A DNA stretch of 64,000 nucleotides from Lachnospira sp. (GCA_051879515.1 JBJEME010000055.1:1961-65960); one strand, 5' to 3'; counted from the first letter of the stretch, positions 154 through 20,829 are shown. Notes: generated by a model from the sequence alone, not told the origin. Translations and numbers: made by a program.

Positions 154-1038
154 ATGGAGCTAAGAGTACTAAGATACTTTTTAATGGTTGCAAGGGAAGA
201 AAACATTACAAAAGCTGCAGAACTCTTGCATGTTACTCAACCCACTCTATCGCGTCAACTTATGCAGTTAGAGGAAGAACTAGGAGTTAAACTATTTAAA
301 AGAAGCAACCATAGCATACATTTAACGGAAGATGGAATGCTTTTAAAAAGAAGAGCGCAGGACATTGTTGCATTGACAGATAAAGCAGAGAAAGAACTAC
401 GTCATGAAGAAGAAGCCGTGACTGGAGAACTTGCGATAGGAAGCGGAGAAACACGAAGCGTGCAGGATTTAGCAGAGGTAATTGCTTTGTTTCAAAAAGA
501 ATATCCTGGAGTCCAATATGATTTCTATACTGCAAATGCAGATGATATAAAAGAGAGATTGGAAAGAGGATTATTAGATATTGGGCTTTTAACGGAACCA
601 GTAGATATATCAAAATTTAATTTTGTTCGACTTCCAAGAAGAGAGAAGTGGGGTGTGCTGGTTCGGAAGGATTCTGAATTAGCTAAAAAAGAAAAAATTA
701 GCCCAGACGATCTGGTACAGGTGCCATTAATATTGGTAAAGCGGACGCTTGTTCAAAATGAGCTTGTAAACTGGTTTGGTGAATATTATGAACAAATTCA
801 TGTAGTTGCCACTTATAACTTAATTAACAATGCAGCTGTTATGGTGGAGAATAATATAGGGGTTGCGCTTTGCTTTAATCTTGAAAATACATATAAAGAT
901 CTTTGCTTTGTACCACTTTCGCCCGCTGTTGAGACAGGAGCGGTGATTGTATGGAAGAAGGATCAATTGGTTTCAAAGGTAGCATATCGATTTATTGATT
1001 TTTTAAAGAAATACAGAACGAGCATTTCTGATAATTAA
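154..1038 (+). CDS. LysR family transcriptional regulator
   Basis: N-terminal MELRVLRYF...AAELLHVTQPTLSRQLMQLEEELGVKLF HTH followed by a LysR substrate-binding domain. Confidence 0.97.
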   Translation: MELRVLRYFLMVAREENITKAAELLHVTQPTLSRQLMQLEEELGVKLFKRSNHSIHLTEDGMLLKRRAQDIVALTDKAEKELRHEEEAVTGELAIGSGETRSVQDLAEVIALFQKEYPGVQYDFYTANADDIKERLERGLLDIGLLTEPVDISKFNFVRLPRREKWGVLVRKDSELAKKEKISPDDLVQVPLILVKRTLVQNELVNWFGEYYEQIHVVATYNLINNAAVMVENNIGVALCFNLENTYKDLCFVPLSPAVETGAVIVWKKDQLVSKVAYRFIDFLKKYRTSISDN

Positions 1039-4201: not shown

Positions 4202-5335
<1,134 letters not shown>

Positions 5336-5407: not shown

Positions 5408-5463
5408 GCATGTTTGAAAATAGTATATAGGTATTAGACATTTCTATATGCCAGCGATACAAT
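5408..5463 (+). promoter_or_regulatory. LysR-type box 3 overlapping a SigA promoter of the redox operon
   Basis: ATAGGTATTAGACAT at 5427-5441; TAGACA (5435-5440), 17 bp, TACAAT (5458-5463). GCATGTTTGA lies 19 bp upstream. Confidence 0.7.
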
Positions 5464-5495
5464 AAAGGTGTTCCAAAGGAACACCTTTATTTTTT
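5461..5495 (+). terminator. Perfect 14-bp inverted repeat with T-tail (terminator or operator)
   Basis: AATAAAGGTGTTCC-AAA-GGAACACCTTTATT-TTTT. Confidence 0.65.
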
Positions 5496-5527
5496 GTACA
5501 TAAATGGAAGGAGGCTTCAAAATAGAC

Positions 5528-6373
5528 ATGATTGAACTAAATAATGGAATAAAAATGCCGTTGCTTGGTTTCGGTGTTTTCCAGATAACAGATGAAATAG
5601 CGTGTGAAGAAAGCGTTTTATGTGCATTAAAGACCGGTTATCGAATGATTGATACAGCTGCCTGTTATGGAAATGAAAAAGCAGTAGGAGCAGCGATTAA
5701 AAGAAGCGGTATTCCCAGAGAGGAAATCTTTATCAGCTCGAAAGTCTGGATTCAAGATGCAGGCTATCTGGCAACAAAGCGTTCTTTTGAAAAGACGTTG
5801 CAAAATTTGCAGACAGATTATCTTGACTTGTACTTAATCCATATGCCTTATGGAGATTATCACGGCAGTTGGGAGGCAATGGAAGAACTATACCGGGAAG
5901 GCAAAATAAGAGCAATCGGTGTTTGCAATTTTCTACCGGATCGATTGGTAGATTTGATTTTAAGTCATCGGATTGTGCCTGCTATCAATCAAATTGAATT
6001 GCATCCATTTTGCCAGCAGACAGAATTGCGTTGCTTGATGGAGCAATATCGTATTCAAACAATGGCATGGGCACCTTTTGCGGAAGGTCGGGATGGGATT
6101 TTTGAAAACGAAATACTGAATGCAATTGGCAGAAAATATGGAAAAACACCTGCACAAGTCACTTTACGTTGGCTTCGACAGGAAAGAATCATTGCAATTC
6201 CAAAATCAGTTCATGCTGAACGCATAAAGCAGAACTTCGCAATAGATGATTTCTCTCTTACTGATTCAGATATAAGAGAGATTGAGAAAATGGATTGCCA
6301 TAAAAGCTTGATTCTGGAAATTCAGAGTTTAGATGAGGTACATAGGCTTCATGGTATTCATTTTGAACAATAG
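5528..6373 (+). CDS. Aldo/keto reductase (2,5-diketo-D-gluconate reductase-like)
   Basis: LNNGIKMPLLGFG, IDTAACY, FISSK, DLYLIHMP, IAIPKS. Likely start is ATG 5528 after GGAGG. Confidence 0.95.
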   Translation: MIELNNGIKMPLLGFGVFQITDEIACEESVLCALKTGYRMIDTAACYGNEKAVGAAIKRSGIPREEIFISSKVWIQDAGYLATKRSFEKTLQNLQTDYLDLYLIHMPYGDYHGSWEAMEELYREGKIRAIGVCNFLPDRLVDLILSHRIVPAINQIELHPFCQQTELRCLMEQYRIQTMAWAPFAEGRDGIFENEILNAIGRKYGKTPAQVTLRWLRQERIIAIPKSVHAERIKQNFAIDDFSLTDSDIREIEKMDCHKSLILEIQSLDEVHRLHGIHFEQ

Positions 6374-6396
6374 GTAGTCGGAAAGGAGAAATTACA

Positions 6397-6606
6397 ATGC
6401 CTCATATAGCAATTACCATGATTCCCGGACGGGATGAGGATGCCAAGCGAAGGCTGGCAAAAAAAGCACAGGAACTTCTAATCAAAGAACTGGGCGTTGA
6501 TTCCAAGTACGTGTCTGTATCTATTCAGGATATTCCCATGGAGAACTGGAAGAAATCTATGGAACAATATTCAGATGAAGTTCTGTATATTAAGCCGGGC
6601 ATATAA
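6397..6606 (+). CDS. 4-oxalocrotonate tautomerase family protein
   Basis: 69 aa, catalytic Pro-1 start (MPHI), AAGGAG RBS. Confidence 0.85.
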   Translation: MPHIAITMIPGRDEDAKRRLAKKAQELLIKELGVDSKYVSVSIQDIPMENWKKSMEQYSDEVLYIKPGI

Positions 6607-6639
6607 ACCAAATTTATGTGGAATTGGAGGATTAAAGAA

Positions 6640-7110
6640 ATGAGTAAGAAACTGGTAGCATATTTTTCAGCAAGCGGTAGAACAAAGAAAGCCGCTGAGC
6701 ATCTGGCTAAGGTAGCGGGGGCAGATCTGTTTGAAATCAAACCCGTTGTTCCTTATACCCGCGAGGATTTGAACTGGATGGACAAAAAGAGCCGTAGCAG
6801 CGTGGAGATGAATAATTCGTCTTCCCGCCCAGAGATTGCTGAGAAATTGGCAAATATGGCAGACTACGATACGGTGTTCGTTGGTTTTCCAATCTGGTGG
6901 TATGTTGCACCGCATATTATAAACACCTTTGTAGAAAGCTACGATTTTACAGGAAAAACGATGGTGCCTTTTGCTACCTCCGGTGGTAGTGGTATGGGCA
7001 ATACTGTTGATGATTTGAAGGAACTCTGCCCGAATGCCAATTGGAAAGTTGGGAAGGTGGTAAATGGCATGTCCGACAAAGAACTGTCTGAATGGGTAAA
7101 TATGTTTTGA
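6640..7110 (+). CDS. Cytoplasmic flavodoxin (Flavodoxin_4 type)
   Basis: [29 protein letters not shown]. No signal peptide. Start at ATG 6640 after GGAGG. Confidence 0.92.
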
Positions 7111-7125
7111 TGTAGGAGGATAACT

Positions 7126-7812
7126 ATGGAAATGAAAAGGACTGACCCCGAATTTTTTGAACGATTTCATTATTTTGCCTTTGATGAGGTTGTTAATGAA
7201 GAAAATCAGCAGCTTGATGCACCTACACGATATTTGGCAATTATAGCTGCTTTGATTGGCTGCGGTGGACTGGATGCGTACCGGGAAATGCTGCCTATTG
7301 CATTGGAAAATGGTGTTACTCCGATCATGCTCAAGGAAACTGTTTATCAGGCAACGGATTATCTCGGGTATGGACGGATACTTCCTTTTTTGGATGCAGC
7401 CAATGATATTTTTGAGCAGAACGGAATTGAGCTGCCTCTGCCCGGGCAAGCCACCACAACGCTTAATGACAGGTTGGAAAAAGGTGCTGATGCACAGGCT
7501 GCTATTTTTGGTGAACAGATGAAAGAGGCATGGAAGAATGGGCATATCAACCGCTGGTTGGCTGCAAATTGTTTTGGAGACTTTTACACGCGCACCGGGC
7601 TTGATTTGAAACAGCGTGAGATGATTACCTTTTGCTTCCTTATGGCACAGGGTGGTTGTGAACCACAGCTTATCGCACATGCAAAGGGAAATATGAACCT
7701 GGGCAATGATAAAGAGTTTCTTGTTCGGGTGGTGTCCCAATGCCTGCCTTATATTGGTTATCCACGCAGTCTCAATGCGGTTAGCTGTATTCAAAAAGCT
7801 GCAGAGAATTAA
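7126..7812 (+). CDS. Carboxymuconolactone decarboxylase (CMD/AhpD-like) family protein, two repeats
   Basis: DFYTRTGLDLKQREMIT, LIAHAKG, PYIGYPRSLNA. Confidence 0.88.
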   Translation: MEMKRTDPEFFERFHYFAFDEVVNEENQQLDAPTRYLAIIAALIGCGGLDAYREMLPIALENGVTPIMLKETVYQATDYLGYGRILPFLDAANDIFEQNGIELPLPGQATTTLNDRLEKGADAQAAIFGEQMKEAWKNGHINRWLAANCFGDFYTRTGLDLKQREMITFCFLMAQGGCEPQLIAHAKGNMNLGNDKEFLVRVVSQCLPYIGYPRSLNAVSCIQKAAEN

Positions 7813-7845
7813 AAAGTTTTATGTGATTTGGAAAGGAATGATAGG

Positions 7846-8850
7846 ATGGAATATACAACTTTAGGAAATACAGACATTCAAATCTCAAAAATATGTGTAG
7901 GCTGCATGAGTTTTGGCAAGGCAGGTACGATGCACGATTGGACACTGGACGAAGAGGAAACAGAGAAGGTGGTCAGACATGCTCTTTCTCTCGGTATCAA
8001 CTTTTTTGATACTGCCAATGGCTATTCTGCCGGGACAAGTGAAGAATATCTGGGTCGTGCATTAAAAAAAAGCATTGCACGTGACAAGGTAGTGATAGCC
8101 TCAAAGGTTTATTTTAACCCCGGAAGACTGTCCGCTGCGGCAATTCACAGAGAAATAGATGGTACGCTCAAGCGTTTGGGAACAGATTACCTTGACCTGT
8201 ATATTATCCATCGCTTTGATTATGACACACCAATTGAAGAAACTATGGAAGCCCTGAATGATTTGGTCAAAGCCGGAAAGGTACGGGCACTGGGTGCTTC
8301 TGCTATGTATGGATATCAGTTCTATAATATGCAGCTTGCTGCACGTGATCATGGATGGGCACAGTTTCAGGCTATGGAAAATCATTATAATCTGCTTTAC
8401 CGAGAGGACGAGCGGGAATTGATTCCAATCTGCAGGCAGATGGGCGTATCTCTAATGCCGTACAGTCCGTTGGCAGCGGGTCATCTTACCCGCCCACAGT
8501 GGAATACGGATACTCTTCGTAGCACAACCGATAGGGTAGCGATGGGAAAATACGACCGTACCGAGGAGCAGGATATGCAGATTGTTTTGCGTGTGCATGA
8601 ACTGGCAGAGCGATACGGCGTGAAGATGCAGCAGATTGCACTTGCGTGGCACTGGGCAAAGGGTGTCGCATCTCCTATCATCGGAGCTACGAAAGCATCC
8701 CATTTTGAAGATGCAGCCGCTGCACTTGCAGTGAAGCTGACAGAGGAGGATATAGCATATCTTGAGGAACCATATCTTCCGCACCGTATTGTGGGAGCCA
8801 TTGATCATAACCCCGCAGATGGGGTAATGCTGTTAGATGAAAAGAAATAG
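7846..8850 (+). CDS. Aldo/keto reductase (YajO-like subfamily)
   Basis: YTTLGNT, GINFFDTANGYS, IASKV, DLYIIHRFD, PYSPLAAG. Confidence 0.94.
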   Translation: MEYTTLGNTDIQISKICVGCMSFGKAGTMHDWTLDEEETEKVVRHALSLGINFFDTANGYSAGTSEEYLGRALKKSIARDKVVIASKVYFNPGRLSAAAIHREIDGTLKRLGTDYLDLYIIHRFDYDTPIEETMEALNDLVKAGKVRALGASAMYGYQFYNMQLAARDHGWAQFQAMENHYNLLYREDERELIPICRQMGVSLMPYSPLAAGHLTRPQWNTDTLRSTTDRVAMGKYDRTEEQDMQIVLRVHELAERYGVKMQQIALAWHWAKGVASPIIGATKASHFEDAAAALAVKLTEEDIAYLEEPYLPHRIVGAIDHNPADGVMLLDEKK

Positions 8851-8871
8851 CAAGTAAAGAGGTGATAAGAA

Positions 8872-10059
8872 TTGAAAAAATTTATTTTATGGATTCTTTC
8901 TATATGTCTGATATTCTGTTTTACAGCATGTGGCAGACAAGAAGACTCTGTTGATGAATTGGCACTATCTCAGCCTGATTTAGAAGAAAGTACACAACCG
9001 GAAAGCACAAGTGAAGAAGAGGCTCAGGGTGTTCCAGGGAATCAAAGTGTTTCAGAGGAAGGTCAGGAACATATATTGATTGCTTATTTTACATGGGCAG
9101 ATAATACAGTGGTAGAGGACGAGGATGCAGCGATTCAATCTGCGCTTGCCCACTATGAGTCTGTTGGTGACACATCAGATTATAGCGGAACGGATGCGAT
9201 TTCTTCCGCCAGTGTTGTGGCACCGGGAAATACAGCAAAAATGGCAGAGTGGATTCAGCAATATGTGGGAGGTGATTTGTTCCCGATTATTGTAACAGAA
9301 CCATATCCAAGTAATTATGATGATTGTCTTGACCGAGCCGCAGATGAAAAGGCTGAAAATGCCAGACCGGAACTTGCAAATCACATAGATAACATGGATG
9401 ACTATGATGTAGTTTTCCTTGGTTTTCCTAACTGGTGGTATACGGCACCAATGGCGGTTTTTTCTTTTATAGAGGAGTATGACCTTTCGGATAAAACAGT
9501 TGTTCCTTTTTGTGCGCATGGAACAGGAGGAATTGCAAGCAGTGTAAAGGACATTACAGCCGCATTGCCGGATTCGGCAGAAGTATTGGAGCCTATTGGA
9601 GTTTACAGGGCAGACATAAATAAAGCACAACCGGCTATCAATGAGTGGCTGGATAGACTTGGATTTCAGGAGAAAGAGGATGTAGCAAAGATGGATAACA
9701 ATGAGAGAAAGCTGAAAATGACAATTGATGGGCATGAACTCGCTATCACTCTTTATGACACGCCTGCAGCAAATGCGCTATATGATATGCTTCCAATGGA
9801 ATTGAACTTTGAAGATTTTAATGGTGTAGAAAAGATCAGCTATCTCTCACAAGAATTACCTACAGAAGGAGAACCGGATGGTTGTGATCCAGATGTTGGG
9901 GATCTATGCCTTTATGCCCCATGGGGAAATCTTTCTGTATTTTATCAGGATTTTCGGTATTCAGACAGCTTAATTTTGCTTGGTCATATTGATTCTGGGA
10001 TGGATATAATTTCCGGTATGAACGAGGATTTCACAGCAACACTCGAAGCCGTTGATTAA
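8872..10059 (+). CDS. Lipoprotein: flavodoxin domain plus C-terminal cyclophilin-like domain
   Basis: Lipobox FTAC, acidic linker, ILIAYFT...GNT...FLGFPNWW...PFCAHGTGG, then TLYDTPAANAL...GDLCLYAPWGNLSVFY. Confidence 0.85.
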   Translation: MKKFILWILSICLIFCFTACGRQEDSVDELALSQPDLEESTQPESTSEEEAQGVPGNQSVSEEGQEHILIAYFTWADNTVVEDEDAAIQSALAHYESVGDTSDYSGTDAISSASVVAPGNTAKMAEWIQQYVGGDLFPIIVTEPYPSNYDDCLDRAADEKAENARPELANHIDNMDDYDVVFLGFPNWWYTAPMAVFSFIEEYDLSDKTVVPFCAHGTGGIASSVKDITAALPDSAEVLEPIGVYRADINKAQPAINEWLDRLGFQEKEDVAKMDNNERKLKMTIDGHELAITLYDTPAANALYDMLPMELNFEDFNGVEKISYLSQELPTEGEPDGCDPDVGDLCLYAPWGNLSVFYQDFRYSDSLILLGHIDSGMDIISGMNEDFTATLEAVD

Positions 10060-10129
10060 ATTTTTTTTATGAAGAAGAGGCATCTAGCTGAAAGGGTATT
10101 TGCTGAAAAATACTTACAGGAGGATTGAG

Positions 10130-11134
10130 ATGAAAAAGTTGCTTATGGAAGCATTGGTTCTTAGCCTTGTCTTATCAATGACTGCCTGCAGAAAAATAGA
10201 TACAACATCAATATCGGATGAAATGACATCGCAAGAGTCAGTAGAAAATATAGAATCTCCTGTTATGGAGGAAAAGGATGAAGCAATGTTGGAGACCAAT
10301 GAAAATATAGAGAGCGCTATTCCCTTTAACTTTGAATCAAAAACTGTTCTTTTAAATAGTGGTTATGAAATGCCGATTTATGGAATTGGTACATACAGTC
10401 TATTAGGTGATGAATGTGTTGACTCTGTATCGGCGGCATTGAACAGCGGAGTTCGGTTAATTGATACAGCTTATATGTATCATAACGAGGAGAGTGTTGG
10501 AGAGGCGGTCAATAATTCGGGTATACCGCGAGAAGAAATATTTATCATCACGAAATTATATCCGGATCAGTATGAAGATGCTGAAGCTGCTATTGATGAA
10601 GCAATTGAAAAGTTGGATGTTGAGTATATTGACATGATGCTTCTTCATCATCCGGGAGAGGGTGATGTGAAAGCGTATCTCGCTATGGAAAAGGCAGTGG
10701 CAGAAGGAAAAATTCATTCGATTGGCCTGTCTAACTGGTACATTGAAGAATTGGAAAGTTTTCTGCCCCAGATAAATATTACGCCTGCACTTGTTCAGAA
10801 TGAGATTCATCCATATTATCAGGAGAATGATGTAATTCCATATATACAAAGTCTCGGTATTGTAGTACAGGGATGGTATCCTCTTGGCGGAAGGGGGCAT
10901 ACGGCAGAACTCCTCGGAGATGAAGTGATTTCTGAGATAGCGGATGCACATGGAAAATCATCAGCACAAGTAATCCTTAGATGGAATCTACAGAAAGGTG
11001 TAGTGGTAATTCCGGGTTCAAGCAATCCTGAACACATTCAGGAAAATACGGAACTATTTGACTTTGAACTGACTGAGGATGAAATGGAACGAATCAACGC
11101 ATTAGATAGAGGAGAAAAACACGACTGGTATTAG
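10130..11134 (+). CDS. Lipoprotein-anchored aldo/keto reductase
   Basis: MKKLL...VLSMTAC lipobox, acidic linker, AKR catalytic residues present (IDTA, MYHN, ITKL, LLHHP). Confidence 0.85.
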   Translation: MKKLLMEALVLSLVLSMTACRKIDTTSISDEMTSQESVENIESPVMEEKDEAMLETNENIESAIPFNFESKTVLLNSGYEMPIYGIGTYSLLGDECVDSVSAALNSGVRLIDTAYMYHNEESVGEAVNNSGIPREEIFIITKLYPDQYEDAEAAIDEAIEKLDVEYIDMMLLHHPGEGDVKAYLAMEKAVAEGKIHSIGLSNWYIEELESFLPQINITPALVQNEIHPYYQENDVIPYIQSLGIVVQGWYPLGGRGHTAELLGDEVISEIADAHGKSSAQVILRWNLQKGVVVIPGSSNPEHIQENTELFDFELTEDEMERINALDRGEKHDWY

Positions 11135-11269
11135 AACAATGGAAGTGTTGATACAAATGAGTGTCCTTTCAGATTTGTCATAAGAGTATTTTCCTATATT
11201 GGAGAATACATGTACAGCAATTTCTGAATAAGCTGGAATGTGATTGAAAAACTCAGAAAGGAGTAGATT

Positions 11270-12001
11270 ATGGAAAGACCTTATATTACCTGTCATATGA
11301 TGGTGTCATTGGATGGAAAAATTATCGGAGATTATATGGTTACGGAGGTTGCAGAAAAAATTAATTCAGAGTATGAACGGATACATGATGAATTTCAGGC
11401 TGATGCGTGGATGTGTGGTAGAGTGACAATGGATGATAACTTTACTTTTTATGAAGAGCCTGAACTGCCACATATTACGGAAAGGATACCTCATACAGAT
11501 TATATTGCGCAAAAGGATGCAGGCAGTTATGTGATAGCGGTTGACCCGTCCGGCAGGCTTGGATGGAAGGAGGACAATATTCACGGATATGCCAAAAGAC
11601 CGCCGGCACATATTGTTGAAGTCCTAACAGAACGGGCATCAGATGGATACCTTGCTTATCTGCAAGAATTAGGAATCTCATACATTTTTGCAGGTAAGGA
11701 GCATGTTGATTGTGAACTTCTTGTATATAAACTCAAAGAATTATTTGAAATCAAACGGCTACTGTTGGAAGGCGGAGGTTTCTTAAACGGTTCGTTTATG
11801 GTTGCAGGATTGATTGATGAGCTTAGTCTTGTGGTTGTACCCATAGCAGACGGGGATTCAGATACAGTAACGCTCTTTGAGAAGGCTGATTACATAGAAA
11901 AAGGTATTCCAATGGAGTTTCAGTTGGAAAATGTGAATCGTTTGGGCGAGAGCGGTCTCTGGCTTCAATATAAAACAAAGAAAAACCAATTAGGAGGTTA
12001 A
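11270..12001 (+). CDS. RibD C-terminal / dihydrofolate reductase-like oxidoreductase
   Basis: HMMVSLDGKI, LLEGGGFLNGSFM, GLIDELSLVVVP. Confidence 0.85.
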   Translation: MERPYITCHMMVSLDGKIIGDYMVTEVAEKINSEYERIHDEFQADAWMCGRVTMDDNFTFYEEPELPHITERIPHTDYIAQKDAGSYVIAVDPSGRLGWKEDNIHGYAKRPPAHIVEVLTERASDGYLAYLQELGISYIFAGKEHVDCELLVYKLKELFEIKRLLLEGGGFLNGSFMVAGLIDELSLVVVPIADGDSDTVTLFEKADYIEKGIPMEFQLENVNRLGESGLWLQYKTKKNQLGG

Positions 12002-12005
12002 GAAA

Positions 12006-12779
12006 ATGAAGAGGATAGCAGCTCTTATGATGTCACTTCTACTGATGTGCACTCTGGCTGCTTGCAGTAGTCGAGGGAAGCAATCGGAAAGCAGTGTACC
12101 TATATCTGATACAGAAATACCTACTTCAACGGAAAAAACAGAACCTTCCGACAAAGAAAGTACAGAGCCATATGAAACAGAAAGCTCTCAAGAAAATTTG
12201 GAAACTGCGACAAACAGCAATATTCTGATCGTTTATTTTTCCCGCTATGGTAATACGGATTATCCCGATGATGTGGATGCCACTACTTCTGCCAGCATTG
12301 TGGCAGAAGGAAATGAGCGATATGGGACAACAGAATATGTCGCATATCTAATTCAGCAGACAGTAGGAGGTGATGTTCATAGGATTGAAACTGTTACTCA
12401 CTATACGGCAGATTTCGATGAACTGCGGGATGTGAATCACGAGGAAATGCAGCAGGGATTCTTGCCGGAATTGAAAGAAAGCAATCTGGATATTTCAACT
12501 TATGATACGGTGTTTATCGGATATCCGGTATGGGCGACCAGCGTACCGCAGGCGGTTCTGTCTTTTTTGGAGCAGTATGACCTGTCCGGGAAAACAGTTA
12601 TTCCGTTTTGCACTCATGATGGTTATGGTGCAGGAAGTAGTTTTAAGGTGATTGCTGATGCCAGTCATGCAACAGTGTCACCGGAAGGTATTGCAATAGA
12701 AGCAAAAGATGTACCTACAGCACAAAATACTGTAGCTGATTGGCTTACAGATATTGGTATTTCCAGTACTCAGGATTAA
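12006..12779 (+). CDS. Lipoprotein flavodoxin (C-terminal domain probably lost)
   Basis: Lipobox LAAC, ILIVYFSR, VFIGYPVW, PFCTHDGYG. Confidence 0.87.
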   Translation: MKRIAALMMSLLLMCTLAACSSRGKQSESSVPISDTEIPTSTEKTEPSDKESTEPYETESSQENLETATNSNILIVYFSRYGNTDYPDDVDATTSASIVAEGNERYGTTEYVAYLIQQTVGGDVHRIETVTHYTADFDELRDVNHEEMQQGFLPELKESNLDISTYDTVFIGYPVWATSVPQAVLSFLEQYDLSGKTVIPFCTHDGYGAGSSFKVIADASHATVSPEGIAIEAKDVPTAQNTVADWLTDIGISSTQD

Positions 12780-12883
12780 ACCGTTGGAAGAGTCACTCCC
12801 AATCTTTCTGTGATTAATGATCTTGATAGCACGGAAGATATTACATTTTCATTAGTACAATAATAAATTTGGAGGAAATTATT

Positions 12884-13618
12884 ATGAAAAAAACAATCGC
12901 TATTTTACTTTCTTTATTCATGATTTTGTGCCTTGCGGCTTGCGGCAATTCTGCAAGTAGTACGGATCAGTCTTCAGTGGAAGATGATGGTGTAGAAAAC
13001 AATATAAGTAATGGTGTATCGACAGATAATGATGATACATTAACAGAAAGTAGCAATTCGGACAATATGGAAAGCGAGGCAGTGTCCGAATCACAGGTGG
13101 AGGAAACAGAAACTCCAAATGTGCAGGAAACCAAAGTTTTAGTGGCTTATTTTTCTGCTACCAACACAACGGAAGGTGTAGCAGAACATATTGCAAATGG
13201 TCTGGATGCTGATCTTTACGAGATTATTCCTGAAGATCCCTACACAGATGCTGATCTTAATTACAATGATAACAACAGCCGAACTACGATTGAAATGAAT
13301 GATCCCAATGCCCGTCCGGCAATCTCAGGTTCCGTAGAGAACATGGAACAGTATGATATTGTGTTTATTGGTTATCCAATCTGGTGGGGAGAAGCACCAA
13401 GAATTGTCAGCACTTTTATGGAAAGCTACGATTTTTCCGGTAAGACAATAGTTCCGTTCTGCACCTCCGCCAGTAGTGGCATAGGTTCTAGCGCAACAAA
13501 TCTGGAACGGCTTACGAGCGGTGCTACATGGCTTTCCGGTCAGCGTTTGAACGGAAGCGATTCTCAGGATACAGTTATGGAATGGGTAAACAGCCTTGGT
13601 TTGGACTTTGGAGAATAG
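12884..13618 (+). CDS. Lipoprotein flavodoxin
   Basis: Lipobox LAAC, S/D/E/N-rich linker, VLVAYFSATNTT, FIGYPIWW, PFCTSASSG. Start at ATG 12884. Confidence 0.88.
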   Translation: MKKTIAILLSLFMILCLAACGNSASSTDQSSVEDDGVENNISNGVSTDNDDTLTESSNSDNMESEAVSESQVEETETPNVQETKVLVAYFSATNTTEGVAEHIANGLDADLYEIIPEDPYTDADLNYNDNNSRTTIEMNDPNARPAISGSVENMEQYDIVFIGYPIWWGEAPRIVSTFMESYDFSGKTIVPFCTSASSGIGSSATNLERLTSGATWLSGQRLNGSDSQDTVMEWVNSLGLDFGE

Positions 13619-13649
13619 TTAGGTAAAACAGATCCAAGGAGATGATTAT

Positions 13650-14435
13650 ATGAAAAAATTACTTGTATTTATGATTTCTCTCATGCTGGTAGTTTCTCTG
13701 GCTGCTTGTTCTAATATGCAGCAGGACACAAATTCCGAAAATGCATCGAGCGAAGAAACTGAACAGGCAACAGAATCCGTCCCCATAGAAACCACGGAAT
13801 CGGATATTTCGCAGGGAGAGGATAATGTGGATTTTTCCAATACTGATACCACTCCTTCAGAGGCGGAAGAAGGGGAGGGCAGCAATATCCTGATTGCTTA
13901 TTTTACCTACGGTGAAAATGCGGAGCTTCCGGATGATGTGGATGCTTCCTCAACCGCCAGTATCCAGATATTAAACGGTAAAGTTACAGGAAATACCGGT
14001 GTAATGGCACACATGATTGCGGAGGCTTCCGGCGGAGAACTGTTCTCCATTCGGACAGTTGAGCCTTATCCTGATAATTATAATGATACCGTTGATGCCG
14101 GGGAAGCTGAAAAGAATAATAATATCCGTCCAGAAATAGCTACGCATATCGAGAATCTGGAACAATACGAAACGGTTTTTGTTGGATTTCCTAATTGGTG
14201 GTATGGCATGCCTATGGTAATGTACAGTTTCTTTGATGAGTACGATTTTAGCGGGAAAAATATTATTCCTTTTTGTACTTCCGGTGGCAGTGCATTTTCA
14301 GATGCAATTGATGAAATAAAGGAAATGGAGCCAGATGCAACAGTTCTAAATGGACTTCATATCGGTGGTTCCAGTGTATCCGATGCGAAAAGCAGAGTGA
14401 ATGAGTGGGTGGAGGAACTCGGCTTATCAAAATAA
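13650..14435 (+). CDS. Lipoprotein flavodoxin
   Basis: Lipobox LAAC, ILIAYFTY...GNT, FVGFPNWW, PFCTSGGS. Confidence 0.88.
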   Translation: MKKLLVFMISLMLVVSLAACSNMQQDTNSENASSEETEQATESVPIETTESDISQGEDNVDFSNTDTTPSEAEEGEGSNILIAYFTYGENAELPDDVDASSTASIQILNGKVTGNTGVMAHMIAEASGGELFSIRTVEPYPDNYNDTVDAGEAEKNNNIRPEIATHIENLEQYETVFVGFPNWWYGMPMVMYSFFDEYDFSGKNIIPFCTSGGSAFSDAIDEIKEMEPDATVLNGLHIGGSSVSDAKSRVNEWVEELGLSK

Positions 14436-14455
14436 TGCGAAAGGACAAATAACTC

Positions 14456-15169
14456 ATGAAACTTAAAATGAAAATAAAAATAGGAATTGATTTTCTGATG
14501 ACAGTGTTGTTGCTTTGTCTGATGGCGTATCAAATCACTGGGCAGGAGTTACATGAGTGGTTTGGTACCGGGATGCTTGTACTGTTCATCGCACACAACG
14601 TTCTAAATATCAGGTGGTACAGTAGCTTATTAAAAGGAAAATATATGCCGTTTCGTATCGTGCAGACAATTGTCAATTTTGGTGTCCTAATTTCCATCCT
14701 TTGTCTTGGATACAGCGGAATTGTTATGTCACGTCATGTATTTTCTGCACTGCCCTTTAGAGGACCGATGGCAACAGCGAGAAGTATGCACATGTCAGTC
14801 TCTTATTGGGGGTTTGTATTAATGAGCATTCATTTGGGCATGCACTGGGGACAGATTATGGGAGTGTTTCGAAGAATATTCGCAGGTAAGAAGATGCATG
14901 GAATATTTGCATGGGGATTACGGCTGGTGGCGATGGCAATAGCAGGATATGGATTAGTTTGCTTCACCCGGAAGGATATTGTTTCGTATATGTTCCTCAA
15001 AAAACAATTTGTATTTTTCGATTTTGAACAAAATGCCTTGTCCGTATTCTGTGAGTATATAGTCATGATGGTTTTTTGGGCATTTGTCAGCTATTACATC
15101 ACTAGAGGAATCGGAAAGATTTTCACTTTGAAATACAAAAGGAAGGAGACAAATCATGAAGAAATTTAG
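14456..15169 (+). CDS. DUF4405-like membrane protein (putative diheme cytochrome b)
   Basis: Several TM helices, LHEWFG motif, His33/His47 and His112/His126 each spaced by 14, plus His130. Confidence 0.75.
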   Translation: MKLKMKIKIGIDFLMTVLLLCLMAYQITGQELHEWFGTGMLVLFIAHNVLNIRWYSSLLKGKYMPFRIVQTIVNFGVLISILCLGYSGIVMSRHVFSALPFRGPMATARSMHMSVSYWGFVLMSIHLGMHWGQIMGVFRRIFAGKKMHGIFAWGLRLVAMAIAGYGLVCFTRKDIVSYMFLKKQFVFFDFEQNALSVFCEYIVMMVFWAFVSYYITRGIGKIFTLKYKRKETNHEEI

Positions 15170-16640
15170 TGCTCTTTTAATAGCAGCAGCAATGCTTATT
15201 ACATTGTGTTCCTGCGGCAACAATGCTACTGAACCGCAAAATGTTTTTTCAACCGAAAGTTTAACCGAAAGCAACTCGGAACAGACAGATACTGCAAGTG
15301 AACCGGAAATAAATCAGACTGTAAGCAATATACCCGAGGATTTTGTTCTGATTTCGGGAGGAACTTTCCAAATGGGCAGCCCGGAGGAAGAAGCATGGCG
15401 CTCAGAGGATGAAACCCAGCATACTGTAACAGTCAGTGATTTCTATATGAGTATTTATGAGCTTACCCAGGCAGAATATCAAGAAGTTATGGGGGAGAAT
15501 CCGTCCAGTTTTTCCGGGGGTGATTTGCCCGTGGAAAATATTTCCTGGCTGGATGCCATACGCTATTGCAATGCCAGAAGTGAACAGGAAGGCTTAACAC
15601 CGGCTTATAAGATAGATGAACAAAATGTAACATGGGATCGCAGTGCAGATGGTTATCGGCTTCCTACCGAAGCGGAATGGGAATATGCCTGCCGTGCAGG
15701 AACTACGACACCATTCAATACAGAAACCTCCATCAGTGCTGAAGAATGTAATTATTTTGGACATTACCCTTATGAAATTGAGGACAATTATTTTTCTCAG
15801 GGGAATCTGGAGACTAAGCCCGGGGAGTATCGCCAAACCACTGTTGCAGTCGATAGTTTTTCTCCAAATAAGTGGGGAATTTACAATATGCACGGCAATG
15901 TCGGTGAATGGGTCTGGGATTATTATGGAGCCTATGGCACAGAAGAACAAACCAATCCAACCGGTGCTGAAACGGGAACGCTGCGAGTATATCGTGGTGG
16001 CGGTTGGAACGATTTTGCAAAAAATATGCGTAGTGCTTATCGCGCAACACTGGCAGAAAATAAAGGCAGTTTCAATATAGGAATTCGATTAGTGCGAAAC
16101 GCTGTAAGTGGTAGCGGAAGTGTTGTCAGTGCGGATATGCAAAACAAAGCAAATACTGATGGAAAGGTCTTAATTGCTTTCTTCTCATGGGGTGGAAACA
16201 CCAAAGGAATTGCAGAGGAAATACAATCACAGACTGGTGCGGATTTATTTGAAATCGAACTGGTGCATCCTTATTCGACAGATTATAACACAGTATTGGA
16301 TGAAGCACAGCGGGATCAGAATGAGCAGGCGCGTCCTGAACTTGCCACTCATGTAGAGAATATGGATGAGTATGAAATAATTCTTCTGGGATATCCAAAC
16401 TGGTGGGCATCTATCCCAATGCCGATTGCGTCATTCTTGGAAGAATATGATTTTTCCGGAAAGACAATTATTCCATTCTGTTCTCATGGAGGAGGCAGAT
16501 TCGGGCAGAGTCTGACAGCGATTACGAAGTTGGCACCTGATTCCATCATGGGAGAAGCACTTGCTGTTAGTTACTCTGGTGGCAGTACTCTGCCTGATGA
16601 CATAACAGAATGGTTGAAAACAAACGGAATAATTGAATAA
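15156..16640 (+). CDS. Lipoprotein: FGE-sulfatase (SUMF1-like) domain fused to flavodoxin
   Basis: Lipobox LCSC; GGTFQMGS, PVENISW, YRLPTEAEWEYACR, MHGNVGEW, RGGGW, GIRL; then VLIAFFSWGGNT...GYPNWW...PFCSHGGG. Confidence 0.88.
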   Translation: MKKFSALLIAAAMLITLCSCGNNATEPQNVFSTESLTESNSEQTDTASEPEINQTVSNIPEDFVLISGGTFQMGSPEEEAWRSEDETQHTVTVSDFYMSIYELTQAEYQEVMGENPSSFSGGDLPVENISWLDAIRYCNARSEQEGLTPAYKIDEQNVTWDRSADGYRLPTEAEWEYACRAGTTTPFNTETSISAEECNYFGHYPYEIEDNYFSQGNLETKPGEYRQTTVAVDSFSPNKWGIYNMHGNVGEWVWDYYGAYGTEEQTNPTGAETGTLRVYRGGGWNDFAKNMRSAYRATLAENKGSFNIGIRLVRNAVSGSGSVVSADMQNKANTDGKVLIAFFSWGGNTKGIAEEIQSQTGADLFEIELVHPYSTDYNTVLDEAQRDQNEQARPELATHVENMDEYEIILLGYPNWWASIPMPIASFLEEYDFSGKTIIPFCSHGGGRFGQSLTAITKLAPDSIMGEALAVSYSGGSTLPDDITEWLKTNGIIE

Positions 16641-16668
16641 ATAGATAAATGTCAAGGGAGGAAAAGGC

Positions 16669-18012
16669 ATGGATCAGCAAACAGCTCTGTTTTCAAATAA
16701 GAGCTTGAGGGCAATGATTATTCCCCTGTTTTTAGAACAGTTGTTGGTGATGCTTGTGGGACTGGCAGATACACTTATTGTAAGCTACGCCGGAGAAGCA
16801 GCAGTATCCGGGGTTTCACTGGTGAACCAGTTTAATACTATTTTCATTTATCTGTTTACAGCTTTGGCTTCCGGCGGAGCCGTTGTAATTAGTCAGTATA
16901 TCGGAAAGAAGGCAAATGAAGATGCCGGGGAGTCTGCAAGTCAGCTATTGTCCTTTTCTACAGTGTTTTCTTTGTTGGTAGCAGTACTGGTACTGATAGG
17001 AAATGAAACAATGCTTCGTTTGCTGTTTGGGAAAGTAGAGAAAGATGTCATGCAGGCTTGCATTACATACTTGAGAATTTCTGCTTACTCCTATCCGGCA
17101 CTTGCAATTTATAATTCCGGTGCAGCATTGTTCCGGAGTATTGGCAAGACCAGTATAACGATGTATTTGTCCCTAGCATCCAATATTATCAATATTATCG
17201 GAAATGTAATTGGTGTATTTGTTTTAAAGGCAGGTGTGGCTGGTGTAGCATATCCTTCTCTAATTGCCCGAATCTTTTCGGCAGTTGTGATTACGTTGCT
17301 TTGCTTTCATAAGAAGTATCAAGTCGTGTATAGAAGCAAATGGATTTTTCGGTGGAATGGAAGTCTTATGAAACACATACTGAACATCGCCATTCTGAAT
17401 GGATTGGAGAACGGTGTTTTTCAGTTGGTAAAGGTAGCTTTGAGCAGTATTGTAGCACTTTTTGGTACTTATCAGATTGCGGCAAACGGTGTGGCGCAAA
17501 GCATCTGGTCACTGGCGGCTTTGGCTGGTGTTTCCATGGGACCGGTATTTATCACGGTAATTGGGCAGTGCATGGGAAATGGGGATGCCAGGGCGGCAGA
17601 TGATTATTTTAAGAAATTGACAAGGATAACCCTTCTGATTTCATCCGCATGGAATCTGCTGGTATTTTTGTTGACCCCGACTTTTCTTAAATTTTATGCC
17701 TTGGAACCAGAAACAAAACAGCTAGTTATATGGCTAGTGCTGATTCATAATGTGTTTAACGCTGTTGCATTTCCATTTTCCGGTGCTCTCAGCAATGGGC
17801 TTCGGGCGGCAGGAGATGTGAAGTTTACCATGTATGTATCTGTCATATCCACCATTGCAGTGCGCTTAATTCTATCTTATCTTTTAGGAATTACGCTGCA
17901 AATGGGGGTCATTGGCATTGCGATTGCTATGGTTTGTGACTGGCTGATTCGGGCTGTGATTTTCTTCTGGAGACAGAAATCAGGGAAGTGGAAAAAATTC
18001 CAGGTAATCTAG
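16669..18012 (+). CDS. MATE family efflux transporter
   Basis: About 12 TM segments, GLADTLIVSYAGEAAVSGVSL, RAAGD. Confidence 0.93.
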   Translation: MDQQTALFSNKSLRAMIIPLFLEQLLVMLVGLADTLIVSYAGEAAVSGVSLVNQFNTIFIYLFTALASGGAVVISQYIGKKANEDAGESASQLLSFSTVFSLLVAVLVLIGNETMLRLLFGKVEKDVMQACITYLRISAYSYPALAIYNSGAALFRSIGKTSITMYLSLASNIINIIGNVIGVFVLKAGVAGVAYPSLIARIFSAVVITLLCFHKKYQVVYRSKWIFRWNGSLMKHILNIAILNGLENGVFQLVKVALSSIVALFGTYQIAANGVAQSIWSLAALAGVSMGPVFITVIGQCMGNGDARAADDYFKKLTRITLLISSAWNLLVFLLTPTFLKFYALEPETKQLVIWLVLIHNVFNAVAFPFSGALSNGLRAAGDVKFTMYVSVISTIAVRLILSYLLGITLQMGVIGIAIAMVCDWLIRAVIFFWRQKSGKWKKFQVI

Positions 18013-18039
18013 GCAGATAAATTGAAAAGGAGATGTTTA

Positions 18040-18444
18040 ATGAAAACACATGCATTTCAACAAATTTTCCCATTAGGGGAGAAAAATGATGCGTATGCCC
18101 AATTCTTTGTTGGGCAAAGCTATTTGAAGATGTTGACGACGGAGCGTGTCAGCATTGCAAACGTAACTTTTGAGCCAGGTTGCCGCAACAACTGGCATAT
18201 TCACCATAAAGGCGGACAGATTTTACTCTGCACCGCCGGACGTGGATATTATCAGGAATGGGGCAAGCCTGCACAGGAATTGAAACCGGGAGATGTGGTG
18301 AATATTCCACCGGAGGTGAAGCATTGGCATGGGGCAGCTCCAGACAGTTGGTTTTCCCATCTGGCAATTGAGGTTCCTGTAGTAGATGCATCAAATGAAT
18401 GGCTGGAAGAAGTCGATGCACAGGAATATGAAAAGTTAAAATAG
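18040..18444 (+). CDS. Cupin domain protein
   Basis: FEPGCRNNWHIHH...GQIL, PGDVVNIPPEVKHWHGA. Start at ATG 18040. Confidence 0.92.
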   Translation: MKTHAFQQIFPLGEKNDAYAQFFVGQSYLKMLTTERVSIANVTFEPGCRNNWHIHHKGGQILLCTAGRGYYQEWGKPAQELKPGDVVNIPPEVKHWHGAAPDSWFSHLAIEVPVVDASNEWLEEVDAQEYEKLK

Positions 18445-18456
18445 GAGGATTCAAAT

Positions 18457-19629
18457 ATGAGTTTCACAATTTTTATGCCAACAAAATGGATTTTTGGTGC
18501 GGGAGTATTGAGCGAACTGAGTAAACAGCCTCTTCCGGGGAAGAAGGCAATGCTTGTCACATCGAATGGAAAATCGACAAAAGAAACCGGTTCACTTTAT
18601 CGGGTCATCGAGCAACTCGCAAAATGTGGGGTCGAAAGTTTGATTTTTGATAAAATCGAAGCAAACCCTTTGAAAAAAACGGTTATGGATGGTGCGGCTT
18701 TCGCAAAATCAAGCGGTTGTGACTTTATTGTGGCACTGGGTGGTGGAAGTGTTATGGATGCGTCAAAAGCAATTGCAGCTATGGCTACGAATAGCGGAGA
18801 TTTATGGGACTATATTTGCGGTGGTACAGGAAAGGGACATCCGCTGACTGAACAGCCTTTGCCGGTTGTCGCGATTACAACTACAGCAGGAACCGGAAGT
18901 GAGGTTGATCAATGGGGTGTCGTCTCCAATGATGAAACCAATGAGAAGATTGGTTTTGGCGGCTATGACTCTCTGTTTCCTGTACTGTCCATTGTTGATC
19001 CGGAACTGATGGCTACCGTACCGCCGATGTTTACAGCTTTTCAGGGCTTTGATGCACTGTTTCACAGTACAGAAGTGTACATATCCAAATTTGCTAATCC
19101 ATTCTCTGACATGGTGGCATTGACAGCTATTGAGTACATTGCAAAAAATCTTGCTAATGCTGTGAACGATGGAGCAGATATGACGGCTCGTGAAAAAGTA
19201 GCCTTTGGTAATACGCTTTCCGGTTATTCCATGGTAACAGGAGCTTGTACCAGCGAGCATGCGATGGAACATGCCATGAGTGCATATCATCACGATTTGC
19301 CCCACGGTGCCGGATTGATTATGATTTCTAAAGCCTACTATCAGCATTTTGTGGATCTGCATGTCTGTGACGACCGTTTTATCAAGATGGCACAGGTGAT
19401 GGGGATGCCGGAAGCTTCTAAAGCACAAGATTTCATTACAATGCTGGATAAGTTACAAAAAGATTGCGGTGTGGATAATCTGAAAATGTCGGATTATCAG
19501 TTTGAGCAAGATGAATTTAGGACTCTTGCGCAGAATGCAAGAGCGACAATGGGCGGTTTGTTTGCCTCTGATCCGGTGGAACTGTCTGACGATGACTGTG
19601 TAAAAATATTTGAGAGATCCTATCGGTAG
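18457..19629 (+). CDS. Iron-containing alcohol dehydrogenase
   Basis: ALGGGSVMDASK, TTAGTGSE, DALFH, EHAMEH, PHGAG. Confidence 0.94.
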   Translation: MSFTIFMPTKWIFGAGVLSELSKQPLPGKKAMLVTSNGKSTKETGSLYRVIEQLAKCGVESLIFDKIEANPLKKTVMDGAAFAKSSGCDFIVALGGGSVMDASKAIAAMATNSGDLWDYICGGTGKGHPLTEQPLPVVAITTTAGTGSEVDQWGVVSNDETNEKIGFGGYDSLFPVLSIVDPELMATVPPMFTAFQGFDALFHSTEVYISKFANPFSDMVALTAIEYIAKNLANAVNDGADMTAREKVAFGNTLSGYSMVTGACTSEHAMEHAMSAYHHDLPHGAGLIMISKAYYQHFVDLHVCDDRFIKMAQVMGMPEASKAQDFITMLDKLQKDCGVDNLKMSDYQFEQDEFRTLAQNARATMGGLFASDPVELSDDDCVKIFERSYR

Positions 19630-19641
19630 AGGTTGGCGTAT

Positions 19642-20829
19642 ATGAAAGCGTTTTTAAAGAGGAAAGCATATTGTTTGGGTTGTATTGTGGTAATAGTGAT
19701 ATGTTTAACAGCAGTTTGTCTGTTCAGTTCTTTATTGCATCATTCAAATAATATCAGCCAAAAGGAAACAACAACAGAACTGTTTGCTATGGATACATAT
19801 ATTACCATGACTGCCTATGGCGAGGATGCTGGAAAGGCTCTGTCTGAGGTGGAATACAAACTAACGGAGTTAGAAAAGCTATGGTCTGTGACAGATTCTG
19901 AAAGCGATATTTATGCTGTTAACCACAACAATGGGCAGGCTACCATGGTGAGCGAAGAAACAGAGGTATTGCTTTCCTTTGTTTTGCAAATGTCAGAGGA
20001 GACGAATGGTGCTTTGGACCCAACGATTTATCCTGTTTTGACTGCATGGGGGTTTACTACAGATGAAAAACGTATTCCATCTGATACTGAGATTACTGAT
20101 TTATTGAGATATGTGGGTTATCAGCATGTCAAATTGGAGGACAGAAATGTCTTGTTAGCTGAGGGCATGATGCTGGATATTGGTGCAGTTGGCAAGGGCT
20201 ATGCTAGTGACCTTGCAGCTCAGATACTGCGAGATAACGGCATTAACTCAGCTTTGCTGGATTTTGGCGGTAATATTCAGACAGTTGGAGAAAAGCCAGA
20301 TGGAAGTCCATGGCGGATTGGTGTTCGAGATCCGCTTTCCAGTGACACATTGGGTGTTTTGGAAATCAGTAACATGGCTGTTGTGACTTCTGGCAATTAT
20401 GAGAGATACTTTATTGGTGAAGATGGCAAACAGTATGGTCACATTATCGACCCTGTTACTTGTTATCCGGTTGAAAATGGTCTCGCTTCTGTTACCGTGA
20501 TTTCTGAGGAAGGACGTTTGTGTGATGCGCTGTCTACTTCACTTTTTGTTATGGGACTTGATAATGCTATCGAATACTGGAAAGAACATCAGAATTTTGA
20601 AATGATTCTGATTACGGACAATAGAGAAATCTATTTGACAGATGGTATTAAAGATGTGTTTTCACTGGATATAAAGCAATTTTTTAGAACAATAAAATTG
20701 ATTGATGTAGCTATAGTGGTCATACTGCTAATTGCTCTGGGATTAGCTGGATATGTACAAATGGAGAAAACAAAGGAAATGGGTGATACTTCTGTTCTAT
20801 ATACTGTGGAAGAGTATAAAGCAAAATGA
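19642..20829 (+). CDS. apbE: FAD:protein FMN transferase (ApbE), N-terminally membrane-anchored, with an atypical C-terminal tail
   Basis: FAMDT, ALDPTI, LDIGAVGKGY, DFGGNI, VTSGNYERY, HIIDP, CDALSTSLF. Confidence 0.9.
   Translation: MKAFLKRKAYCLGCIVVIVICLTAVCLFSSLLHHSNNISQKETTTELFAMDTYITMTAYGEDAGKALSEVEYKLTELEKLWSVTDSESDIYAVNHNNGQATMVSEETEVLLSFVLQMSEETNGALDPTIYPVLTAWGFTTDEKRIPSDTEITDLLRYVGYQHVKLEDRNVLLAEGMMLDIGAVGKGYASDLAAQILRDNGINSALLDFGGNIQTVGEKPDGSPWRIGVRDPLSSDTLGVLEISNMAVVTSGNYERYFIGEDGKQYGHIIDPVTCYPVENGLASVTVISEEGRLCDALSTSLFVMGLDNAIEYWKEHQNFEMILITDNREIYLTDGIKDVFSLDIKQFFRTIKLIDVAIVVILLIALGLAGYVQMEKTKEMGDTSVLYTVEEYKAK

Follow-up and report, generated by a model that had tools for sequence, protein, structure and literature searches.

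A putative LysR-controlled operon of Lachnospira encoding a candidate surface electron-transfer module of heme b and flavodoxin proteins

In a 64,000-nucleotide stretch of DNA from Lachnospira sp. (GCA_051879515.1, JBJEME010000055.1:1961-65960), which we call the window, we examined a run of 16 co-directional, tightly spaced + strand genes between positions 5504 and 20829 that may encode an extracytosolic electron-transfer system. We refer to each gene and its product by the start coordinate (Table 1). Spacing within the run varies from a 14-nucleotide overlap to a gap of 243 nucleotides. A preliminary description of this locus had placed six lipoproteins around a DUF4405-like membrane protein in a gene run at 8872-20829 that ends in the flavin mononucleotide (FMN) transferase ApbE. 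All of its open reading frames are present where it put them and the genes are as it described, with ApbE (19633) the last of the run, but the run begins at 5504, not 8872. The Pfam check that it proposed for each protein recovered the Flavodoxin_4, Aldo_ket_red, DUF4405 and ApbE families. Interleaved with the lipoprotein genes are three that encode signal-less, presumably cytoplasmic proteins (the RibD_C-like 11270, the cupin 18022 and the iron-containing alcohol dehydrogenase 18457) and one that encodes a MATE-family membrane transporter (16669).

The suspicion that neighborhoods of apbE and DUF4405 had already been surveyed proved correct. The passages of Huang, Meheust, Barquera and Light (2024, mSystems; PMC11334425) on flavodoxins and DUF4405 describe Firmicutes Flavodoxin_4 proteins adjoining apbE that carry an insert with a flavinylation motif between β1 and α1. 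Two such insert-bearing proteins were flavinylated by their cognate ApbE, and the Ser/Thr of the motif was required. The same passages report that DUF4405, which has four central histidines, co-localizes with apbE and flavinylated Flavodoxin_4, and that an Oscillospiraceae DUF4405 protein bound heme b; the proteins tested were SHO45324.1, WP_073032509.1 and MBD5117352.1. Our search of the full-text literature found no later functional study of DUF4405, and nothing beyond the 2024 paper on the function or induction of such clusters.

The products of 8872, 10130, 12006, 12884, 13650 and 15156 begin with MKK or MKR; next come hydrophobic residues and then a lipobox whose last residue is Cys20 (FTAC, MTAC, LAAC, LAAC, LAAC and LCSC, in gene order). 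The linkers after the cysteine are 40-63 amino acids long and contain 18-30% Asp/Glu, 20-39% Ser/Thr and 0-8% Lys/Arg. When N-termini were compared, none of the other ten operon proteins had one of the lipoprotein type. These N-termini and the Pfam assignments agree with the description of six lipoproteins with a lipobox and an acidic linker, five carrying flavodoxin domains and one an aldo/keto reductase (AKR) domain. Judged by sequence, the six appear to be extracytosolic lipoproteins; ApbE, which has hydrophobic segments at residues 6-39 and 347-380 by hydropathy, also appears to be extracytosolic, held by its N-terminal hydrophobic anchor.

An alignment of the six operon Flavodoxin_4 domains reveals a flavinylation-type insert in 8872 (motif DAISSAS at nucleotides 9193-9213, predicted flavinylation site Ser114), 12006 (DATTSAS at 12276-12296, Ser97) and 13650 (DASSTAS at 13941-13961, Ser104). 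In the same alignment the insert is missing from 12884 (which reads YFSATNTTEG), from the flavodoxin domain of 15156 and from the cytoplasmic 6616. This is evidence that covalent and non-covalent surface flavodoxins may coexist in one operon. The proposal that ApbE supplies covalent FMN to the surface flavodoxins is consistent with the insert motif in three of the domains, but does not extend to the two of five that lack the insert.

The orthologue of 8872 in Enterocloster bolteae, 75% identical, has the motif DATSSAS. Homologues of 13650 number 4264 at E-values below 1e-10, a lipobox is present in 113 of the best 120, and VDAS-x-S/T-AS-I is retained in all variants listed for the top homologues. 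In an AlphaFold model of mature 13650 with a predicted local distance difference test score (pLDDT) of 90.1, the insert (residues 8-35, pLDDT 70-76) lies between β1 and α1. The best fold matches of this model in the PDB are the FMN-binding Flavodoxin_4 structures 4ICI, 4J8P and 3KLB, the last being the FMN complex that serves as a comparison in a passage of Huang et al. (PMC11334425). The closest relatives of 12006 (L008:7007-8134, L015:7820-8935 and L013:6506-7636) are 371-376 amino acids long with a C-terminal Cyclophil_like2 domain, which was probably lost from 12006, since the window copy, at 257 amino acids, lacks the domain that its relatives carry. A sequence search found no PDB relatives of the Cyclophil_like2 domain.

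The membrane protein 14456 has the two His-x13-His pairs previously noted, H33/H47 and H112/H126, with 13 residues between the members of each pair, and belongs to Pfam DUF4405. Neither these four histidines nor H130 vary among eight homologues, of which the most distant is 38% identical. The structure model of 14456 contains six long helices (pLDDT 65; best Foldseek E-value 0.8); weak fold look-alikes of this low-confidence model are FdnI (1KQF_C), the hydrogenase-1 cytochrome b subunit and CybB. From its sequence and by analogy, 14456 is predicted to be a di-heme b transmembrane electron conduit.

The gene for 14456 is the one that overlaps its downstream neighbor by 14 nucleotides. That neighbor, 15156, is a lipoprotein in which a domain like that of formylglycine-generating enzyme (FGE) precedes a flavodoxin domain (FGE-Fld), and the pair occurs in the same order in E. 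bolteae, Bianquea renquensis and several further members of the family. At one related locus (L017), a single 759-amino-acid protein fuses DUF4405 to a seventh hydrophobic helix, an acidic linker, an FGE-like domain and a flavodoxin; the 728-amino-acid P0249 is an equivalent fusion, and partial versions occur at L032 and L034. The loop preceding the seventh helix is basic, which agrees with a topology that would have both DUF4405 termini in the cytoplasm and the FGE-flavodoxin part outside. Because the genes overlap here and are fused into one protein in other genera, 15156 is likely the direct partner of the cytochrome. Some homologues of 15156 carry SLH cell-wall domains or Cu_amine_oxidN1 domains, which independently supports the surface location, and others carry extra Flavodoxin_4 and Cyclophil_like2 domains.

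We rejected 15156 as a true formylglycine-generating enzyme because both catalytic cysteines are missing in the alignment to S. coelicolor FGE (6MUJ, 2Q17), one position falling within an absent three-residue segment and the other being aligned to a non-cysteine residue. Homology searches with 15156 returned 162,023 cluster representatives of the Cys-less FGE-like domain at E-values up to 0.001. Among its homologues P0241-P0390, the domain is often found as 3-11 repeats in surface proteins of 1000-4400 amino acids. Because repeats are common in these large surface proteins, a binding rather than a catalytic role is suggested for the domain.

The last gene of the run, 19633, lies on the same strand 4 nucleotides after the preceding gene, and its product matches the FMN transferase 7ESA in the PDB with an E-value of 2e-55. 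Besides the operon copy, the genome has one other ApbE gene, a paralogue on contig C88 with 33% identity to it, and a single FMN_bind protein, encoded inside an Rnf operon on contig C106. Since there are two ApbE genes and only one FMN_bind protein, the operon ApbE looks like a dedicated copy. In the region C88:32794-34891, this other ApbE, itself a lipoprotein and probably housekeeping, is followed by two small genes. By position and length only, they resemble NusG_II and Hpre_diP_synt_I, whose genes come after apbE where the E. bolteae operon ends.

Our comparative sample comprised 151 genomes of the family, one per genus, of which 31 have a DUF4405 homologue, and we surveyed 35 DUF4405 loci with 10 kb on either side. 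Lipoprotein flavodoxins or FGE-Fld proteins are encoded within this distance at 21 of the 35 loci, and at 18 of the 20 with the closest homologues. Motif-bearing flavodoxins are present at 7/35 loci, and several loci have only insert-less lipoprotein flavodoxins. The E. bolteae operon is syntenic: it contains two Flavodoxin_4 (Fld4) genes, DUF4405, FGE-Fld, MatE and ApbE, as well as LysR, CMD, AKR, cupin and iron-containing alcohol dehydrogenase genes. The order Fld4, Fld4, DUF4405, FGE-Fld, MatE is common to the window, E. bolteae and Bianquea. An apbE gene lies within 10 kb of DUF4405 at one of the 35 loci, and two of the DUF4405 genomes have no ApbE at all. The joint neighborhood of apbE and DUF4405 expected across genomes is therefore rare in this bacterial family, and we rejected ApbE as an obligatory neighbor of DUF4405 there. 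The presence of ApbE elsewhere in a genome is uninformative because Rnf needs ApbE anyway.

The best named NCBIfam relative of the MATE protein 16669 is EmmdR/YeeO, at 224 bits against a 465-bit cut-off, and the other MATE genes of the genome are at most 27% identical to it. Orthologues with 64-85% identity adjoin the module at six loci (L001, L008, L009, L015, L016 and L017). Among the 35 surveyed loci, the orthologue occurs only at those with motif-bearing flavodoxins (3/7 versus 0/28, Fisher p = 0.005). The Shewanella MATE transporter Bfe supplies flavin adenine dinucleotide (FAD) to the periplasm (PMC3551548), and YeeO exports flavins (as cited in a passage of PMC13492142). Because ApbE uses FAD outside the cytoplasm, it is reasonable to suppose that 16669 is an FAD exporter.

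Searches of the 94%-complete genome found no UbiA-family prenyltransferase (14/14 control genomes matched), no ferrochelatase (PF00762) and no lumazine synthase above cut-off. Because no UbiA-family gene was found, a quinol donor to DUF4405 is unlikely and a soluble cytoplasmic donor probable. The organism is probably quinone-less and dependent on outside heme and riboflavin, the heme probably being scavenged. Flavin is probably in short supply, in which case a covalent anchor for surface FMN would be useful.

The lipoprotein AKR 10130 keeps the catalytic Asp/Tyr/Lys/His tetrad, with LIDTAYMY, ITKLY and LLHHPG aligning to YvgN (3F7J). It reads IPGSSNPEH where YvgN has IPKSIKEHR and does not keep the conserved Lys and Arg of the IPKS...R stretch, which we take, from AKR1B1, to contact the 2'-phosphate of reduced nicotinamide adenine dinucleotide phosphate (NADPH). 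Of its 120 closest homologues, 114 have a lipobox and 118 keep the Gly and His of this stretch. Two homologues whose surroundings were examined belong to LysR clusters; besides an AKR, these encode a hexapeptide transferase and FMN_red but neither DUF4405 nor ApbE. The nearest NCBIfam family of the cupin 18022 is (R)-mandelonitrile lyase (120.6 bits against a 140-bit cut-off), and pairs of cupin and iron-containing alcohol dehydrogenase genes recur in related loci. Given this pair and the beta-glucoside-type phosphotransferase system (PTS) upstream, one may speculate that the locus handles plant glycoside aglycones.

A 15-nucleotide box, ATAGGTATTAGACAT, is identical at 1041-1055, 2213-2227 and 5427-5441, and 0 of 100 shuffles reach four matches. 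An alignment of the three sites shows a shared GCATnTnT element about 19 nucleotides upstream of the box. The first site stands before a MerR-like/methyltransferase pair, the second before a PTS gene and the third before the operon beginning at 5504; at this operon site the -10 element is at 5458-5463 and the promoter scan score is 10/12. Because an identical box stands at three promoter-like sites, one regulator is suggested for the three transcription units, probably the LysR protein encoded at 154-1038. LysR homologues with 40-66% identity are found near DUF4405 at 13 of the 35 loci. The sole strong terminator-like hairpin, at 5461-5491, comes just before the first gene, between the -10 element and 5504, and consists of 14 perfect base pairs followed by a T run; it may terminate the upstream unit and overlap the promoter, or act as an attenuator in the leader. 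Downstream of the PTS EIIBCA gene (2312-4201), a chimeric open reading frame at 4217-5335 runs from the N-terminal half of a GH1 6-phospho-beta-glucosidase (profile positions 4-211 of 453) into a C-terminal FMN_red/Flavodoxin_2 part and looks like a deletion joint or pseudogene.

Table 1. Features of the putative operon and its upstream region, in window coordinates
Feature	Position	Strand	Evidence
LysR-family protein, candidate operon regulator	154..1038	+	Pfam HTH_1 and LysR_substrate
Promoter-like site: 15-nucleotide box ATAGGTATTAGACAT containing -35, plus -10 TACAAT	5427..5463	+	
Aldo/keto reductase, DkgA-like, cytoplasmic	5504..6373	+	Pfam, NCBIfam; no signal peptide
Flavodoxin_4 without insert, cytoplasmic	6616..7110	+	Pfam 251.6 bits; no signal peptide
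Carboxymuconolactone-decarboxylase (CMD, AhpD-like) family protein	7126..7812	+	Pfam CMD
Aldo/keto reductase, YdjG-like, cytoplasmic	7828..8850	+	Pfam, NCBIfam
Lipoprotein, Flavodoxin_4 with insert and Cyclophil_like2	8872..10059	+	Pfam; alignment; N-terminus
Lipoprotein aldo/keto reductase, YvgN-like	10130..11134	+	Pfam Aldo_ket_red
RibD_C-like reductase, no signal peptide	11270..12001	+	Pfam 62.4 bits
Lipoprotein, Flavodoxin_4 with insert	12006..12779	+	Pfam; alignment
Lipoprotein, Flavodoxin_4 without insert, non-covalent type	12884..13618	+	Pfam 204 bits; alignment
Lipoprotein, Flavodoxin_4 with insert	13650..14435	+	Pfam; alignment; model
DUF4405 membrane protein, predicted di-heme b conduit	14456..15169	+	Pfam 44.7 bits (cut-off 26.7)
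Lipoprotein, Cys-less FGE-sulfatase-fold domain and Flavodoxin_4 without insert	15156..16640	+	Pfam
MATE transporter, candidate FAD/FMN exporter	16669..18012	+	Pfam MatE
Cupin, cytoplasmic	18022..18444	+	Pfam
Iron-containing alcohol dehydrogenase, cytoplasmic	18457..19629	+	Pfam, NCBIfam
ApbE FAD:protein FMN transferase	19633..20829	+	Pfam 295.9 bits

We consider it probable (roughly 0.7) that 5504-20829 is one LysR-controlled operon of a quinone-less member of the Lachnospiraceae, which joins cytoplasmic carbonyl/alcohol oxidoreductases to an extracytosolic module for electron transfer, of the kind known from Huang et al., in which electrons take an outward path. Heme binding and flavinylation have been demonstrated for homologues, and the present locus contributes sequence features, synteny and fusions. 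Which protein donates the electrons, which way they flow, in what order the carriers act, what the MATE protein transports and what accepts the electrons are inferred.

A cytosolic reductant, likely the signal-less Flavodoxin_4 6616 or an NAD(P)H flavoenzyme, would reduce DUF4405, and b hemes on H33/H47 and H112/H126 would carry the electrons across the membrane, as heme binding by a homologue and the conserved histidines suggest. The first acceptor outside would be 15156, with its Cys-less FGE fold and non-covalent flavodoxin, to judge from the gene overlap and the fusions elsewhere, and electrons would next reach the four further flavodoxin lipoproteins on acidic tethers of 46-63 amino acids. 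The membrane-anchored operon ApbE would attach FMN covalently to 8872, 12006 and 13650, as in homologous systems, the predicted site being the last Ser of the D-A-x-S/T-S/T-A-S motif of the insert, which would sit in the phosphate-binding loop. The MATE protein would probably export FAD for ApbE and FMN for the two non-covalent flavodoxins. The final acceptors would most likely be soluble surface oxidants or electrophiles such as quinones, flavins, Fe(III) or O2, and the AKRs, alcohol dehydrogenase, cupin and CMD protein of the same regulon, all cytoplasmic, would handle what enters the cell. The preliminary description had likewise led electrons through DUF4405 to surface flavodoxins carrying FMN from ApbE; the published class supports this core, but the flavodoxin closest to DUF4405 is of the non-covalent type.

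Several points weigh against an outward electron path of this kind. Heme and FMN binding, localization and co-transcription are all inferred for these particular proteins, and the same holds for the acceptor and for the way in which electrons flow. The model of DUF4405 is poor and has no significant fold match, and the flavodoxin most tightly linked to DUF4405, that of 15156, has no flavinylation motif. Because apbE is rare at DUF4405 loci and many loci have insert-less flavodoxins only, flavinylation is an optional addition and not the heart of the module. The association of the MATE orthologue with motif-bearing flavodoxins draws on few loci, not phylogenetically independent, and the score of 16669 lies far below the YeeO family cut-off. 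The failure to find a ferrochelatase leaves the heme source in question, and flavin export would be costly because the host, with no lumazine synthase above cut-off, is a probable riboflavin auxotroph. The lipoprotein AKR may not draw on the chain at all, since its family occurs in clusters without DUF4405 or ApbE; its candidacy as a dedicated end-enzyme is not supported. The idea that a flavodoxin relay feeds surface enzymes was not substantiated.

The occurrence of such AKRs in LysR clusters of their own also suggests a looser arrangement, in which the lipoprotein AKR, the cyclophilin-like fusion and the flavodoxins share a LysR regulon as independent stress enzymes, each dealing singly with electrophiles or quinones at the surface. 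No ordered relay would link them, and the sole partner of DUF4405 would be the FGE-like-flavodoxin protein. The wide variation in gene content around DUF4405 between genomes, the existence of a cluster with ApbE and two flavodoxins but no DUF4405, and the single operator-like box common to three promoters are consistent with this arrangement. It would, however, leave isolated surface flavodoxins without an evident electron source, and lipoprotein flavodoxins adjoin DUF4405 at nearly all of the closest loci (the 18 of 20 above), with the five-gene order from Fld4 to MatE kept in the window, E. bolteae and Bianquea. We regard it as improbable.

Somewhat less probable still is that the surface flavodoxins serve flavin capture or economy, holding scarce FMN or riboflavin while ApbE and MATE take part in flavin trafficking and DUF4405 keeps the flavin reduced or is unrelated. 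The lack of a lumazine synthase hit above cut-off in the 94%-complete genome and the presence of five flavin-binding lipoproteins in one operon, two of which bind flavin non-covalently and so have to acquire it outside the cell, would suit such a role, and relatives of ApbE include periplasmic FAD pyrophosphatases of flavin trafficking (in a passage of PMC4767422). Covalently attached flavin, however, is unavailable for uptake, Pfam searches of the operon proteins found no flavin uptake transporter, the fusions of DUF4405 to flavodoxin in other genera argue for electron transfer, and Huang et al. interpreted and partly tested the homologous system as electron transfer in the passages concerned (PMC11334425).

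Inward flow, with surface flavodoxins collecting external electrons for DUF4405 and the cytoplasm, or redox sensing, with the heme protein reporting the external redox state, is very improbable: a di-heme conduit has no intrinsic direction and the operon's cytoplasmic reductases could consume electrons, but a quinone-less fermenting anaerobe is usually short of electron sinks rather than electrons, the related flavinylated systems covered in passages of PMC11334425 move electrons outward, and Pfam searches of the operon proteins found no sensor or signaling domain. We rank all three of these explanations as less likely than the outward electron path.

On a broader and more speculative proposal, which we think somewhat unlikely, the conserved working unit would be not ApbE plus DUF4405 but the DUF4405 cytochrome with the surface FGE-fold-flavodoxin protein, whose FGE domain would serve extracellular reduction as a novel kind of terminus, either binding the substrate or acting catalytically. 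Flavinylation by ApbE and a MATE FAD exporter would be an add-on keeping cofactors at the surface of a flavin-poor anaerobe, and the LysR regulon (PTS, cupin, AKRs, alcohol dehydrogenase and surface AKR) would answer a diet-derived electrophile, for example a quinone or aldehyde aglycone.

The usual view of Lachnospiraceae and of related gut Clostridia is that they are simple fermenters. If the outward electron path is real, a widespread route from heme to surface flavodoxins would provide such bacteria with an electron sink outside the cell, or with protection at the surface against oxidants and electrophiles; homologues of 13650 number in the thousands, and about one genus in five of the family has a DUF4405 gene. 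Because the core trio is already published (in the passages of PMC11334425 cited above), what the locus offers is a set of leads and not a discovery: a complete example that is matched by a syntenic operon in a named species, a fusion-based pointer to the partner of the cytochrome, and a candidate flavin exporter. The leads of most worth are the FGE-like partner, the MATE link and the surface AKR.

Like the clusters in the passages of Huang et al. (PMC11334425), the window brings together ApbE, a four-histidine DUF4405 protein and exported insert-bearing Flavodoxin_4. Unlike those clusters, it has a MATE protein in place of the frequent, though not obligatory, Listeria-type flavin transporter, which is absent from the 16 genes; two of its five flavodoxin domains appear to be non-covalent; and its module sits in a 16-gene LysR operon with cytoplasmic reductases. 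The FGE-like-flavodoxin protein, the lipoprotein AKR and the cyclophilin-like fusion of the window are not mentioned in that paper's passages on flavodoxin or DUF4405. The window transporter shares the MATE family with YeeO of E. coli and Bfe of Shewanella oneidensis, but it is not an orthologue of YeeO (224 versus 465 bits) and its flavin substrate is presumed.

Flavin-based extracellular electron transfer in Listeria monocytogenes, reportedly described by Light et al. in 2018, consists of FmnB/ApbE, the lipoprotein PplA, Ndh2 and demethylmenaquinone. It resembles the present system in having a Gram-positive lipoprotein with ApbE-attached FMN outside the membrane and in needing a flavin supply there. 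Its carrier has FMN_bind domains whereas those of the window are flavodoxins, and its membrane step uses Ndh2 and quinone whereas the window has a heme protein in a genome with no UbiA-family prenyltransferase. A quinone-linked chain of the Listeria type was rejected on the latter ground, the genome being 94% complete.

With E. coli MsrPQ and the PepSY-like ferric reductases, the window system shares four histidines on transmembrane helices and a predicted transfer of electrons from the cytoplasmic side to an exported partner, a structural likeness of DUF4405 to MsrPQ/PepSY-like di-heme proteins that a passage of Huang et al. points out (PMC11334425). In contrast to these systems, with which DUF4405 has no detectable shared sequence family, the partner in the window is a flavodoxin lipoprotein, not a molybdoenzyme. 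The Cys-less FGE-sulfatase fold of 15156 is shared with PorK/GldK of type IX secretion, PvdO and T. denticola variable protein 1. Locally, RGGGWNDFAKNMRSAYR of 15156 is very similar to RGGSWKDVARFIRSATR in the PorK-type lipoprotein, and the FGE cysteine pair is missing from both. Unlike the known Cys-less members of the fold, the domain of 15156 is joined to a flavodoxin and coupled genetically to a cytochrome.

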